Shown piece by piece: positions 16,447-56,625 of a stretch of 64,000 nt of DNA (position 1 is the first letter of the stretch; each line of letters opens with the position of its first letter). The notes under the pieces are model-generated. The model did not search any database. It had not been told where the DNA came from and was given only the letters and a program-made list of their open reading frames with translations. The stretch comes from Nitrospinales bacterium (lineage in GTDB: Bacteria; Nitrospinota; Nitrospinia; Nitrospinales; VA-1). The translations under genes were made by a program, and so were the position numbers. The stretch covers positions 640,001 to 704,000 of the forward strand of contig OZ253496.1 of assembly GCA_965262115.1 (NCBI GenBank), written 5' to 3'.

Positions 16447-16683
16447 GTCTTTCCCCTTTTTTGACTTGCGCAAAGGTCCCCCTGACAAGGAGACCTTTGC
16501 ATAACCCGAGACCCTCATTGATCCTCCCCTCTCATGAGGGGAGGTCTGGAGGGGTGTGGATTATTTTACGGAATTCATAATCCAACCCTCCCCTGGCCCC
16601 TCCCTATGAAGGGAGGGGAGATTTCTGCTTCCGCTTTCAACTTACACAAAGCTTGATCTTCCCCTGTTTTAGTGGACAGTTAG

Positions 16684-17547
16684 TTAAGAGGCATAGGCCT
16701 GTTTCTCGAATTCGGCAGGGCTGAGATAGCCGAGATATGAGTGACGGCGCTGCCGATTATAAAACACTTCGATATATTCAAAAATATCCTTCTTTGCTTG
16801 CTGACGGGTTTTGTAGTTCCGGTTATGAATGAGTTCCACTTTGAGAGTATGGAAAAAACTCTCCGCCACGGCGTTATCCCAGCAATCGCCCTTCCGGCTC
16901 ATACTGCACTCTATCCCATGAACATTGAGCAAGGCTTGAAAATCGTTGCAGGCATATTGAACCCCCCGGTCAGAATGGTGAATCAATCCCGGTTTCATGC
17001 CGCCGTTCTTCATTGCCATATTTAAAGCTCTCATTACCAACCAATGGGTTATCCAACGATCCATGGCCCAACCAATAACTTTACGGTGGAATAAATCCAG
17101 CGTCACCGCAAGGTATAACCAGCCCTCTTGAGTCGGGATATAGGTGATATCCGAAACCCAGCATTGACCGGGCTCAGCAACATTAAACCGCCGTTGCAGT
17201 TTGTTTTTTGCCACCGGGTGATTATGTTTGGAATCGGTTGTCACCCTGAACTTTCTTTTGTGCTTGGCAACGATTCCATGCTCGCGCATAAGACGGGCAA
17301 TACGATGCCTGCCAATGGCATATCCCTTGTCTTTCAAGTCCTCATGAATTCTGGGACTGCCATAAGTCTGGCGACTCTTCTTATAAACGGTTTTGATCTC
17401 ATCAACCCATCGCTGCTTCTCACGGCTCCTCAGGCTCTCGGGGCGGCTCAGCCAGGCATAGAACCCACTTCGTCCCACTTCCAGAACCCGGCACATCGGG
17501 CTTACCGGAAATGCTTCTCGATGATCCCGTATAAACCGATATCTCAT
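16684..17547 (-). CDS. IS3 OrfB (DDE integrase)
   Basis: [26 protein letters not shown]. Confidence 0.93.
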
Positions 17548-17583
17548 TGGGAACCCTTCGAGTACCCCTTGTATGTTGTTCAT

Positions 17584-17792
17584 AAGGGGAATTTGTAGTA
17601 GTTGTACCTGTGAGCCCTGTGGGAAGCCGGTTTTGTGTTTTCCACAAGGCTCACAGGGTTTGATTCAGGGCACAATAGATCGTTTACCCCTTGGGCTTTT
17701 AAGCCCGTCCCGAAGCGCAGATCGTTGTGTCCTATTTTGATTAACCCGAACAGTTGCCTGGGCCACTGAGCCCGCATCGGCAAGGCTGGGAG
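17584..17792 (+). ncRNA. IS110 bridge RNA (5' hairpin, target-binding loop, donor-binding loop); ends approximate
   Basis: Internal-loop segments match the actual target (TACCCCTT 17685-17692; CCCGAAG 17709-17715) and the circle junction (ACAGTTGC 17750-17757; CAAG 17781-17784). Confidence 0.85.
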
Positions 17793-17800
17793 ACCAAATT

Positions 17801-18751
17801 ATGAATCAGAAACCCCATTTTATTGGCATCGATATTTCTAAACTCCATCTGGATGTTGCTGACAGCATGACTCAAGAAACCTGGCAAACCGCTAACAATG
17901 AGGAAGGAATTGCTGGTTTGGTCGAGAGTTTATCCGCCTTAAATCCTCCATTGATCGTTTTGGAAGCCACAGGCGGCTTAGAGATCCCGTTGGCTTCGGC
18001 CCTGGTTGCGGGTCGACTGCCAGTAGCCGTGGTCAACCCACGGCAAGTTCGTGATTTTGCCAAAGCCACCGGGAAACTGGCAAAAACCGATGTCATTGAT
18101 TCTCTTGTGCTGGCCCATTTTGCCAGGGCCGTACGTCCTGAGGTCAGGAAAATCAAAGACGAAGAATCTCTGGAACTCTCAGCTCTAGTGACACGCCGTC
18201 GCCAGTTGATCGAGATGCTGACCAAAGAAAAAACCCGTCTAAAACAAGCTCCAAAATGGATATGTAAAGACATTAAGGAGCATATCGAATCTCTTAAAAA
18301 ACGCTTGCGAAAAATCGATGGCGACCTTTCCAGAACCATCAAAAACAGTTCTGCCTGGCGTGAGCACGACCAGATCATACAAAGTGTTCCCGGTGCCGGT
18401 CCCGTTCTGGCTGTCAACCTCTTGGCCGGGGTTCCGGAACTTGGAGTTCTTAATCAGAAGCAAATCGCCGCCCTCATCGGTCTCGCTCCCCTCAATCGGG
18501 ACAGCGGAAAGTTCCGGGGCCGCCGGTGTATCTGGGGCGGCCGCGCCAATGTGCGTGCCGCTTTATACATGGCCGCCGTCACTGCCATGCAGCATAATCC
18601 CGTGATTCGTACCTTTTACACACGCCTCATCGAAAAGGGCAAACCCTTTAAAGTTGCCATTACCGCATGCATGAGAAAGTTATTAACGATCATCAATACC
18701 ATGATCAAAACAAAAACACTCTGGAATGAAAATCTCATTGCCAGCACTTGA
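17801..18751 (+). CDS. IS110 DEDD recombinase/transposase
   Basis: GIDISK, LEATG, KTDVID, NRDSGK, RAALYM. Confidence 0.96.
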   Translation: MNQKPHFIGIDISKLHLDVADSMTQETWQTANNEEGIAGLVESLSALNPPLIVLEATGGLEIPLASALVAGRLPVAVVNPRQVRDFAKATGKLAKTDVIDSLVLAHFARAVRPEVRKIKDEESLELSALVTRRRQLIEMLTKEKTRLKQAPKWICKDIKEHIESLKKRLRKIDGDLSRTIKNSSAWREHDQIIQSVPGAGPVLAVNLLAGVPELGVLNQKQIAALIGLAPLNRDSGKFRGRRCIWGGRANVRAALYMAAVTAMQHNPVIRTFYTRLIEKGKPFKVAITACMRKLLTIINTMIKTKTLWNENLIAST

Positions 18752-18769
18752 CATTTAACACAGTTGCTT
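18748..18769 (+). promoter_or_regulatory. -35 half of the IS110 circle-junction promoter
   Basis: TTGACA 18748-18753; joined to the left end gives a 17-bp spacer and TATGTT (17572-17577). Confidence 0.85.
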
Positions 18770-18801
18770 CGGGGCATGAAAGCCAATGAAGAGGACATCA
18801 C

Positions 18802-19077
18802 AAAGATAACTGTCGCCTTTTTTAATATGTCCCGCTCCATACGAAGGCGAGCGTTTTCTCGCCGCAACTGCTGCAACTCATCTCCCGGCTTAAGCTGTCC
18901 TTTGCCGGGAAACGCATTCCCCTGATCCTCCTCATACTCCTGTTTCCAGCGACCCAGAAGGGCAGAACGGATTCCCAGATCCCGGGACACCCGGGCAATG
19001 CTATCGCCTACTTCAATAACCAATCGAACCGCTTCTAACTTGAATTCTTTACTGAAACTCCTGCGTTTGGTTCCCAT
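18802..19077 (-). pseudogene. IS3 OrfA, 3' end interrupted
   Basis: FSKEFKLEAV...LRRENARLRMERDILKKA; A-AAA-AAG slippery site. Confidence 0.9.
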
Positions 19078-19183
19078 AAAAACACCTCCAAAAGTGTATT
19101 ATCCACACTTTTCGATGTGTCCACCAATTCAGGGGAAGATCAGCTCTCCCTGACAAGGGGGATTGAGGGGGTTTGCTTAGGTT

Positions 19184-54712: not shown

Positions 54713-54999
54713 AAGGGATTGGGCTTCATCGTGATTTTGATTGGGGTGGGACTCGGGGCGATCAACACCGGCAACAATCTTTCATATTTGATTCTGGCCA
54801 TGTGTTGCAGTTTCATCGTCGTCTCCGGGATTTTGTCCAAAATGAGCTTGAAAAAACTCAGCGTTGAATGCGAGGCACCCGCTTATCTTTATGCACAGGA
54901 ACCCGGCTCTCTGAAGCTCCGCAATCACAAAAATTGGGAACCCTCCTATTCCATTCGCGTTAAAGCAGCTCAATCCCGTCAACTCTTCTCTCCGGAACC
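54713..54999 (+). pseudogene. DUF58-type protein, N-terminal fragment
   Basis: GAINTGNNL motif following moxR; cut off at the MITE end at 55000. Confidence 0.7.
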
Positions 55000-55019
55000 G
55001 AGAGCTTTGCATAACCCCG

Positions 55020-55097
55020 ACCCCTGCGGGGCATGAAGTTTAAGGAAATACCCGTGCCGGGCATGAAGACTAATGTTGGGGATATTACAAATATCAC
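55020..55097 (-). repeat. two nested 38-40 bp mini-elements
   Basis: inner copy 55049-55088 lies within outer copy 55020-55048 + 55089-55097. Confidence 0.65.
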
Positions 55098-55156
55098 GTC
55101 TTCGTCACGTTGTTCCTCAGAATGACAAAACAGCCTTTTATTGTCATGCTGAGCTA

Positions 55157-55194
55157 GTGATATTCGACCTTTGCCTTCTTGCCCCGTAGGGGTA
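55157..55194 (+). repeat. 38-bp mini-element inside a GTCATGCTGAGC...TCGAAGCATCT palindrome
   Basis: GTGATATTCGACCTTTGCCTTCTTGCCCCGTAGGGGTA. Confidence 0.7.
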
Positions 55195-55239
55195 TCTCGA
55201 AGCATCTCGCTTTTCTGCTTTATCGACTTACACAAAGCT

Positions 55240-56529
55240 TGATCTTCCCCTGTTTTAGTGGACAGTTAGTTAAGAGGCATAGGCCTGTTTCTCGAATTCG
55301 GCAGGGCTGAGATAGCCGAGATATTAGTGACGGCGTTGCCGATTATAAAACACTTCGATATATTCAAAAATATCCTTCTTTGCTTGCTGACGGGTTTTGT
55401 AGTTCCGGTTATGAATGAGTTCCACTTTGAGAGTATGGAAAAAACTCTCCGCCACGGCGTTATCCCAGCAATCGCCCTTCCGGCTCATACTGCACTCTAT
55501 CCCATGAACATTGAGCAAGGCTTGAAAATCGTTGCAGGCATATTGAACCCCCCGGTCAGAATGGTGAATCAATCCCGGTTTCATGCCGCCGTTCTTCATT
55601 GCCATATTTAAAGCTCTCATTACCAACCAACGGGTTATCCAACGATCCATGGCCCAACCAATAACTTTACGGTGGAATAAATCCAGCGTCACCACAAGGT
55701 ATAACCAGCCCTCTTGAGTCGGGATATAGGTGATATCCGAAACCCAGCATTGACCGGGCTCAGCAACATTAAACCGCCGTTGCAGTTTGTTTTTTGCCAC
55801 CGGGTGATTATGTTTGGAATCGGTTGTCACCCTGAACTTTCTTTTGTGCTTGGCAACGATTCCATGCTCGCGCATAAGACAGGCAATACGATGCCTGCCA
55901 ATGGCATATCCCTTGTCTTTCAAGTCCTCATGAATTCTGGGACTGCCATAAGTCTGGCGACTCTTCTTATAAACGGTTTTGATCTCATCAACCCATCGCT
56001 GCTTCTCACGGCTCCTCAGGCTCTCGGGGCGGCTCAGCCAGGCATAGAACCCACTTCGTCCCACTTCCAGAACCCGGCACATCGGGCTTACCGGAAATGC
56101 TTCTCGATGATCCCGTATAAACCGATATCTCATTGGGAACCCTTCGAGTACCCCTTCGGGGCATGAAGACAAATGAAGAGGACATCACAAAGATAACTGC
56201 CGCCTTTTTTAATATGTCCCGCTCCATACGAAGGCGAGCGTTTTCTCGCCGCAACTGCTGCAACTCATCTCCCGGCTTAAGCTGTCCTTTGCCGGGAAAC
56301 GCATTCCCCTGATCCTCCTCATACTCCTGTTTCCAGCGACCCAGAAGGGCAGAACGGATTCCCAGATCCCGGGACACCCGGGCAATGCTATCGCCTACTT
56401 CAATAACCAATCGAACCGCTTCTAACTTGAATTCTTTACTGAAACTCCTGCGTTTGGTTCCCATAAAAACACCTCCAAAAGTGTATTATCCACACTTTTC
56501 GATGTGTCCACCAATTCAGGGGAAGATCA
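55240..56529 (-). mobile_element. IS3-family element copy 2 (1290 bp), inactive-looking
   Basis: same IRs as copy 1; orfA from 56464, orfB from 56133 with premature TAA at 55324-55326; no TSD. Confidence 0.95.
56148..56188 (-). repeat. 41-bp mini-element in the IS3 orfA/orfB junction; empty IS110 target
   Basis: removing it restores KKAAVIFSKGSQ* with an ATGA overlap to orfB. Confidence 0.85.
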
Positions 56530-56625
56530 GGGATTAGGGGAGGGTTGGATTATGAATTCCGTAAAAATAATCCACACCCCTCCGCGGCTACGCCTTGCCT
56601 CCCCTCATGAGAGGGGAGGATCAAT
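56530..56625 (-). repeat. inverted copy of 16517-16594 (CCCCTC-type palindromes)
   Basis: near-identical reverse complement with a small hairpin insertion. Confidence 0.85.

Follow-up and report, generated by a model that had tools for sequence, protein, structure and literature searches.

The 64 000-nt stretch of DNA analyzed here (the window) covers positions 640001–704000 of the single-contig genome of a Nitrospinales bacterium (2,684,264 bp; labelled G000 in comparisons) and carries copies of a short repeat unit of 39–41 bp that ends in a small hairpin with a G-N-A loop. The unit is a real, mobile and lineage-restricted repeat of unusual architecture: pairs of filled and empty sites show that it enters as a discrete block with exact ends; composites of several units spread as blocks. 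We read the units, with a probability of roughly 0.55, as a family of non-autonomous mini-elements restricted to Nitrospina/Nitrospinaceae, with a lifestyle like that of repetitive extragenic palindromes (REP) and bacterial interspersed mosaic elements (BIME) and an anatomy distinct from both. Nitrospina are the ocean's main nitrite oxidisers, and the dynamics of their genomes are of wider interest. How the smallest bacterial repeats move, among them REPs without a REP-associated tyrosine transposase (RAYT), CGTC repeats and the small dispersed repeats (SDRs) of cyanobacteria, is a long-standing question. The present family offers a clean case, with exact ends from empty alleles, gains and losses between complete genomes of 94–96% identity, a covarying hairpin and absence of the known movers, and this makes a search for the enzyme tractable.

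Anatomy, copy number and distribution of the unit

A preliminary description of the window, made from the letters of the sequence, had reported five copies of the repeat. Reading the positions directly, we found all of them: the pattern CTTCWTGCCCSGNASGGGT, used as a window-level test, gives four matches at 55020 (−), 55050 (−), 55175 (+) and 56150 (−) where 0.02 are expected, a number reached in 0 of 100 shuffles, and the fifth copy is split by a 1199-bp IS110-family element with its last seven bases at 17564–17570. The genome-wide pattern search that had been proposed as a check shows that the family far exceeds five copies. Depending on the criterion we count 212 copies with the regular expression TGCCSSGNASSGGTA, 233 with a hairpin filter that requires complementarity and 326 with an nhmmer profile built from the hairpin-filtered copies; the profile copies are divided evenly between the strands (164 plus, 162 minus).

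The consensus of the unit reads 5′-N-GTGAT, a variable middle, TTCRT, the hairpin GCCSS-GNA-SSGG and a terminal TA. Its 5′ part of 24–26 nt is non-palindromic, while the 3′ end forms a 5–6-bp GC hairpin with a G-N-A loop and closes with ..GGGTA; the palindromic portion is limited to TGCCSS-GNA-SSGGTA, 15 nt of ∼40. When the copies are aligned on the hairpin, conservation stops sharply after ..GGGTA and extends upstream for ∼25 nt to GTGAT, with a length variation of one base. The lengths of 156 strictly defined units are mostly 39 bp (73 units), 41 bp (51) or 40 bp (30), and they begin with T (95 units), A (32) or C (29). Units occur singly or in head-to-tail arrays with a period of 39 bp (five units at genome position 814.9 kb), and they are nested in each other at three recurrent positions: after GTGATATT, directly before TTCGTG and within the hairpin loop. 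The nested composites are themselves multi-copy. Identical units are found in unrelated contexts, for example eight copies in six contexts or four copies in four contexts. Directly 5′ of one unit, at genome ∼1185300, we noted a CTAG hairpin (CCCCCTAGCGGGGG, CCCCC-TAGC-GGGGG).

Gene positions were taken from a crude map of open reading frames (ORFs) that covers 83.6% of the genome and leaves 16% non-coding. Relative to this map 213 of the 326 profile units lie between ORFs, another 39 do so in part and 74 are inside ORFs, the last group including the IS3 copies discussed below and, probably, spurious ORFs. Unit density is higher in convergent gene gaps (64 units in 77.6 kb) than in divergent ones (36 in 114.8 kb). 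This enrichment would fit a fixed functional signal, such as a terminator, an RNA stabiliser or a protein-binding site. Such a role is barely credible in view of units inside the IS3 reading frame and inside other units, of an occupancy that varies among close relatives, and of a hairpin that is not followed by a T-run, shows no strand preference and belongs to a unit that no Rfam family matches. Transcription-strand bias was absent in tandem gene gaps, with 62 units co-oriented and 66 opposite. Given that they have no orientation with respect to neighbouring genes, the units appear not to be an RNA signal.

Of 18 sampled genomes of the genus, 16 contain the strict pattern, with 2 to 284 copies, and of 12 genomes from other genera of the order none does; the reversed pattern, used as a control, gave no match in all 31 genomes. 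Among the matches listed when 185,579 species representatives were scanned, 75 of 80 belong to Nitrospina, Nitrospinaceae, Nitrospinales or Nitrospinota. Among the other five matches listed, four do not contain the GTGAT part and are put down to chance, and one, on a contig of a metagenome-assembled genome (MAG) labelled KSB1, looks genuine. That contig holds a single unit, complete in appearance and in its usual upstream context, which could reflect a transfer or mis-binning of the contig. Other species share these subfamilies and nested composites. The earlier remark that the family was not recognized as a described one agrees with our searches: none of the papers listed describes such repeats in Nitrospina, and no Rfam family matches the units.

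Filled and empty sites

The most direct evidence for precise insertion comes from an IS3-family element of 1290 bp at 55240–56529 (minus strand). A 41-bp unit, TGTGATG...CCCCGAAGGGGTA, lies in its orfA/orfB frameshift window at 56149–56189 (minus strand). In IS3 relatives from three other genomes of the genus, aligned across the orfA/orfB junction, exactly these 41 bp are absent (3/3), and they are likewise missing from eight relatives found by protein search (8/8), whose hosts extend from Nitrospinaceae to Magnetococcales, SAR324 and a Bacillota isolate; at least one record belongs to both sets. The empty allele reads ..CATCTT|CTCGAA.. and the filled one ..ATCTT[TGTGATG...GGGGTA]CTCGAA.., so that the ends of the unit are fixed and target bases are neither duplicated nor lost. 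It had been considered that all IS3 relatives might carry the 41 bp natively; the relatives are without the unit. The preliminary description was right about the IS3 copy itself and one base off in its coordinates, as the empty alleles give the ends as 5′-TGTGAT...GGGGTA-3′. Its count of two interruptions at the IS3 junction was not upheld: all 19 IS3-derived loci of the genome have the unit, and the two copies are one ancestral insertion.

Further empty sites were found within the genome by removing units in silico and searching for the joined flanks, which yielded an empty paralogue for 35 units. Two such sites belong to a multi-copy palindromic host repeat. Site A (TGAGCT|TSTCGAAG) is empty in 25 cases, holds one unit in 24 and two units in 7, and site B (CGAAGA|ATCYNGG) is empty in 34 and filled in 9. 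The filled host sites have their own subfamily, and each state may thus be one event that spread with its host; for this reason we counted them as single events. In the window a 39-bp unit, AGTGAT...CCCCGTAGGGGTA (55156–55194, plus strand), occupies site A of this host repeat, whose core (GCTCAGCATGACAA...TTGTCATTCTGAGG) lies at 55099–55155, has empty and filled paralogues and carries one unit on each side. The unit on the other side is itself interrupted: its 5′ part (CGTGATATT; 55090–55098, minus strand) and its 3′ part (TTTCCTTAAACTTCATGCCCCGCAGGGGT; 55020–55048, minus strand) are separated by an inner unit of 41 bp, TGTAAT...CCCGGCACGGGTA (55049–55089, minus strand), and uninterrupted versions of the outer unit occur elsewhere, e.g. 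at genome 1177360. Units interrupting an IS3 element, a palindromic repeat and other units, as first described, were thus all recovered. The host repeat, considered with its flanks (54990–55240), is multi-copy, its arms read CGAGATGCTTCG and CGAAGAATCTCG, and the outward-pointing units on both sides give it a REPIN-like appearance (REPIN, a hairpin formed by a REP doublet).

We then compared orthologous loci of relatives, of which G013 and G031 are 93–98%, G007 83–94% and G006 81–98% identical to G000 in aligned blocks. The comparison with G013 was limited to the first 400 kb of that genome, which contain 80 profile matches, to alignments of at least 600 bp and to gaps of at least 30 nt (n = 63). 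Four gaps of 39–40 bp correspond precisely to one unit each, in DNA that is otherwise unique (ev1–ev4), three further unit events (ev5–ev7) were split by the aligner, and much of the rest consists of larger mosaics with units inside; a visible share of the length differences between G000 and G013 coincides with units and unit mosaics. Three of the events are polarised by outgroups. The unit of ev2 is present in G000 and absent from G013 and G007. At ev3 the host unit is found in G000 and G013 and not in G007, G006 and G031, and G000 alone has a second unit inverted within it. The unit of ev4 is present in G013 and G007, G006 reads GGTGGG at this site, and G000 and G031 retain AGGGTA, apparently the tail of a unit since lost. 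A fourth orthologous locus has two tandem units in G013, only the second type in G000 and only the first type in G031. Elsewhere G031 lacks the stretch between two direct units and retains a single hybrid unit, a deletion by recombination between these units; the site adjoins what looks like the end of a tRNA gene. Gains, losses and exchanges of units thus all occur at a divergence of a few per cent.

Filled and empty alleles, which the preliminary description had proposed to collect, were therefore available from IS3 relatives, from paralogues and from close relatives. Every pair confirms its statement that target site duplications (TSDs) and terminal inverted repeats (TIRs) are lacking, and in every pair the ends are N-GTGAT...GGGTA. 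Contigs from public sequencing runs, which break at repeats, contained no clean skip of 39–41 bp among the matches listed; one strain has 127 other letters in place of a unit-bearing stretch.

Part of this variation is of the kind expected if no dedicated enzyme existed and units were redistributed by gene conversion, unequal crossing-over, illegitimate recombination or replication slippage at hairpins. The tandem arrays with their 39-bp period fit such an origin, as do the locus with alternative unit types, the G031 deletion, the AGGGTA remnant at ev4 in G000 and G031 where G013 and G007 have a whole unit, and a multi-copy composite in G000 whose counterpart in G013 is a plain unit. The exact-ended insertions at IS3, ev1, ev2 and ev5, by contrast, lie in unique DNA without flanking homology, and the IS3 junction reads GGGGTA|CTCGAAG, unlike the GGGGTA|TCTCGAAG that homologous capture from the common context would leave. 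We therefore regard recombination without an enzyme of its own as unlikely to explain the family.

The flanks of proven insertions differ on the left (ATCTT, GAGCT, GAAGA, GCGCA, CCAG, CACG, AGCA) as well as on the right (CTCG, TGTC, ATCT, ATAC, AAAA, AAAG, CGCC), and the target consensus that was to be derived from filled and empty pairs did not emerge from them. Many sites are located in or beside other hairpin-forming repeats, a tendency seen by eye in predicted folds. The IS3 insertion site, for instance, is situated within CTTCTCGA, and the complement TCGAGAAG follows downstream.

The hairpin and candidate enzymes

The compensatory exchange of C-G for G-C in the stem, first noticed in one copy, proved to be real and general across the family. 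When complementarity was not required (n = 270), the innermost stem pair was C-G in 150, G-C in 71, T-A in 17 and another combination in 32 units. When any loop was allowed, G-N-A made up 196 of 208 loops (GCA 63, GAA 57, GTA 48, GGA 28), and 10 of the 12 others were A-N-A. The stem and the two outer loop bases are thus constrained, and the middle loop base is free. Loops of the d(GNA) type are known to be unusually stable. As the loop constraint concerns one strand and has no link to transcription, it points, by inference, to recognition of folded DNA. In this respect the single-stranded intermediate of the preliminary description remains the best reading of the covarying hairpin, whereas the HUH- and reverse transcriptase (RT)-type movers proposed with it found no support in the searches described below.

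On these grounds we tentatively suggest, with the odds somewhat against it, that an enzyme acting in trans recognizes the unit in its folded single-stranded form, cuts it at the foot of the GNA mini-hairpin and reinserts it, often in or beside other hairpin-forming repeats. This enzyme would not be a Y1 HUH transposase, a TnpB or an intact RT, since none of these is encoded in the high-copy genomes. A bolder version, which we consider doubtful, places the mechanism outside the known transposase families: a 40-nt unit would be recognized purely as a folded single-stranded d(GNA) mini-hairpin and cut at its foot and ∼25 nt upstream by a novel, possibly host-encoded nuclease/ligase or replication-repair activity. 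If true, it would add a new kind of selfish DNA, one that needs hardly any sequence of its own and is currently active throughout a bacterial family.

Several results weigh against a mini-element family that moves as a folded single strand. A nearest-neighbour DNA model gives the hairpin ∼−3 kcal/mol on each strand, with z between −0.3 and −1.2 relative to shuffles; this model contains no special GNA-loop term and cannot separate the GNA strand from its complement. As the energy does not stand out from shuffles, the case for the fold rests on covariation. Replication-strand bias, which is known for single-strand transposons of the IS608 type, was absent: with replichores assigned by GC skew (origin ∼1.45 Mb, terminus ∼0.25 Mb) we counted 102 plus and 93 minus units on the right and 62 plus and 69 minus units on the left replichore (p = 0.43). 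The number of independent insertion events is about a dozen and not hundreds, as many filled host repeats carry one subfamily and may stem from a single insertion that spread with its host, and some differences between relatives are replacements or unit–unit deletions within reach of recombination alone. The Y1 HUH domain (PF01797) has 0 matches in G000, in G013 (284 strict copies on one contig) and in G007 (83 copies). G009 has no copies of the unit, yet possesses a Y1 gene, and at four Y1 loci of relatives no unit hairpin was found within 1.5 kb. TnpB-type proteins (PF07282) gave 0 matches. The RT domain RVT_1 (PF00078) gave two weak matches (30.4 and 20 bits), both interrupted by a stop and both within genome 50216–51029, the sole RT-like stretch in the genome.

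Longer relatives of the unit did not supply an enzyme either. The check for versions with the same ends around an ORF yielded none, and only IS110-split units resemble one. Of the 38 profile matches truncated at the 3′ side, many stem from units split by IS110, of which they are the 5′ halves; the others appear decayed. The multi-copy coding elements of the genome comprise IS3, IS110, IS30-like and IS5/IS1182-like transposases and autotransporter-like ends, the latter kinds assigned by reading translations, and none of the multi-copy insertion sequence (IS) elements has unit-like ends. Fourteen genes bracketed by two units, taken from 74 unit pairs, look like housekeeping genes by eye. No candidate enzyme was thus present among the searched families. 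We also considered the IS110 element as a mover and rejected it, because only 4 of 23 genomes of the genus have this IS and most have units.

An RNA intermediate copied in trans by an RT would suit elements that are small and have one defined 3′ structure usable for priming or recognition, and the genome does hold one RT-like stretch. We nevertheless rate this route as highly improbable: the matches in that stretch are weak and contain stops, the units are not oriented with transcription (62 versus 66), and they show neither 3′ tails nor a series of 5′ truncations, the truncated copies being IS110-split or decayed.

REP and REPIN sequences with RAYT (Y1 HUH) transposases (Bertels & Rainey 2011, PMC3116915; Di Nocera et al. 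2013, PMC3733652) are a known system similar in lifestyle. The units share with them a length of tens of bases, hundreds of copies, an extragenic and lineage-specific occurrence, hairpin formation, mosaics, inverted pairs and the landing of IS110 elements. They differ in that only 15 nt are palindromic and preceded by a long non-palindromic 5′ part, in the lack of a GTAG or CGTC tag (the unit starts with N-GTGAT and finishes with GGGTA, and its hairpin end reads TACCCC in the opposite strand), in the absence of a RAYT from genomes with many units, and in ends that are exact by empty alleles. One could still suppose an ordinary REP/REPIN family whose RAYT was lost from the genome or is too divergent for detection. 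Copy number, extragenic location, inverted pairs around a palindrome and mosaic clusters agree with this, a Y1_Tnp gene of ∼325 aa is present in 7 of 23 genomes of the genus, and REPtrons can be lost by deletion according to Di Nocera et al. 2013 (PMC3733652). Against it stand the lack of Y1 in the three most complete high-copy genomes and its presence in a zero-copy genome, the four Y1 loci devoid of units in their vicinity, the missing tag together with the small palindromic portion, and an occupancy that differs between genomes of 94–96% identity, both without Y1, differences which also indicate that the activity is recent. We consider this explanation very unlikely and retain a mini-element family that is REP-like in lifestyle and separate in anatomy.

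Other known systems share single traits with the units. Elements of the IS200/IS605 family have two subterminal hairpins, a fixed left target of 4–5 nt, a Y1 TnpA and a lagging-strand bias. Their ORF-less derivatives resemble the units in having neither TSD nor inverted ends and in a hairpin-defined end, but the unit has a single 3′ hairpin, no fixed target, no Y1 and no strand bias. Miniature inverted-repeat transposable elements (MITEs) moved by DDE transposases differ from the units, which have no TIR, TSD or long ORF-bearing version. The SDRs of Nostoc/cyanobacteria, which Elhai et al. in 2008 are said to have described, are reportedly ∼21–27 nt long with precise insertions in tandem and nested arrangements. 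By this description they are similar to our units in small size, nesting, tandem arrays and precise insertion; they belong to another phylum, and the covarying terminal GNA hairpin is specific to the unit family. CGTC-tagged REPs are described as apparently without a dedicated transposase by Di Nocera et al. 2013 (PMC3733652); by that description they are alike as abundant hairpin repeats without a cognate transposase gene and unlike in tag and architecture. By analogy, CGTC repeats and cyanobacterial SDRs would be the closest likenesses of the unit family.

IS3 and IS110 elements carrying the unit

The insertion affects the coding organization of its IS3 host. IS3 elements usually have orfB in the −1 frame behind an A-AAA-AAG site, and in one IS3 relative orfA ends with ..KKAAVIFSKGSQ* and the start of orfB overlaps the stop in the −1 frame. 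In every IS3 copy of the genome the unit sits between the A-AAA-AAG slip site and orfB, orfB is in the +1 frame, and GTGATG of the unit supplies a TGA in the orfB frame. With 41 bp and this TGA in between, a −1 slip at the A-run cannot reach orfB. Seven uninterrupted IS3 copies at different loci are nonetheless 99.6–100% identical, a further 12 are IS110-split or one-sided, and all have the unit; G013 and G031 are without this IS3. The transposase may be produced by a different route, or the copies may have spread by other means. A candidate for the former might be a +1 event within the unit, e.g. at CCC-C of the hairpin followed by CGA-AGG.

A second IS3 copy (16656–19142, minus strand) is broken within its unit by the IS110-family element mentioned above. 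The element occupies 17571–18769 (plus strand) in the GAA loop of the unit with CT at both flanks, between the 5′ part of the unit, which extends up to the hairpin loop (∼18770–18802, minus strand), and its 3′ part, AGGGGTA (17564–17570, minus strand). It consists of a non-coding left end with bridge-RNA-like loops (17571–17800) and an ORF (17801–18751). All 23 full-length copies of this IS110 in the genome are inserted at ..ATGCCCCG|AAGGGG.., i.e. at the same point of the GAA-loop CCCC/GGGG hairpin (..CCCCG|AAGGGG..), with CT at both junctions. The sequences after the hairpin are of at least 14 different kinds, by a count of printed flanks, and nine copies lie in the IS3 unit. The non-coding left end folds as RNA with −82 kcal/mol (z −4.4) and exposes an internal loop in which a small hairpin separates UACCCCU from CCCGAAG: UACCCCU equals the left target plus core, and CCCGAAG equals the complement of the core plus the right target. 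The target guides of bridge RNAs are arranged likewise (Durrant et al. 2024, PMC11208160). These data show that the GAA-loop hairpin is the programmed target of this IS110-family element, which exploits the repeat but does not move it. The units have in this way become the landing pad for an IS110 that has expanded to >20 copies.

IS110 elements that land in REPs, such as IS621, ISPpu9 and ISPpu10, are reported in PMC11208160, PMC12288879 and 10.64898/2026.03.19.712850. The present element resembles them in its use of a single position of a repeated hairpin, in CT on both sides and in guide-like loops that match the target, and differs in that its target is the GNA-hairpin unit and not a GTAG REP. 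One IS110 copy, at genome 2144783, sits in the left end of another copy, at CCCGAAG. Antisense to the left end of the IS110 in the window, at 17654–17810 (minus strand), Rfam gives its sole match, to the Xanthomonad small RNA sX15 with 35.4 bits (E 0.00095), below the gathering threshold of 55.

Repeats other than the unit were noted as well. An 85-bp stretch beside the end of the IS3 element (56536–56620) has ∼25 copies in the genome with 92–100% identity, and its relatives contain TGATCCTCCCCTCTCATGAGGGGAGG. The region at genome ∼3–36 kb is highly repetitive, with segments that match 7 to 113 other places at an identity of at least 85%. A segment of 5.6 kb is present in two copies, at genome 778647–784234 and 792016–797603.

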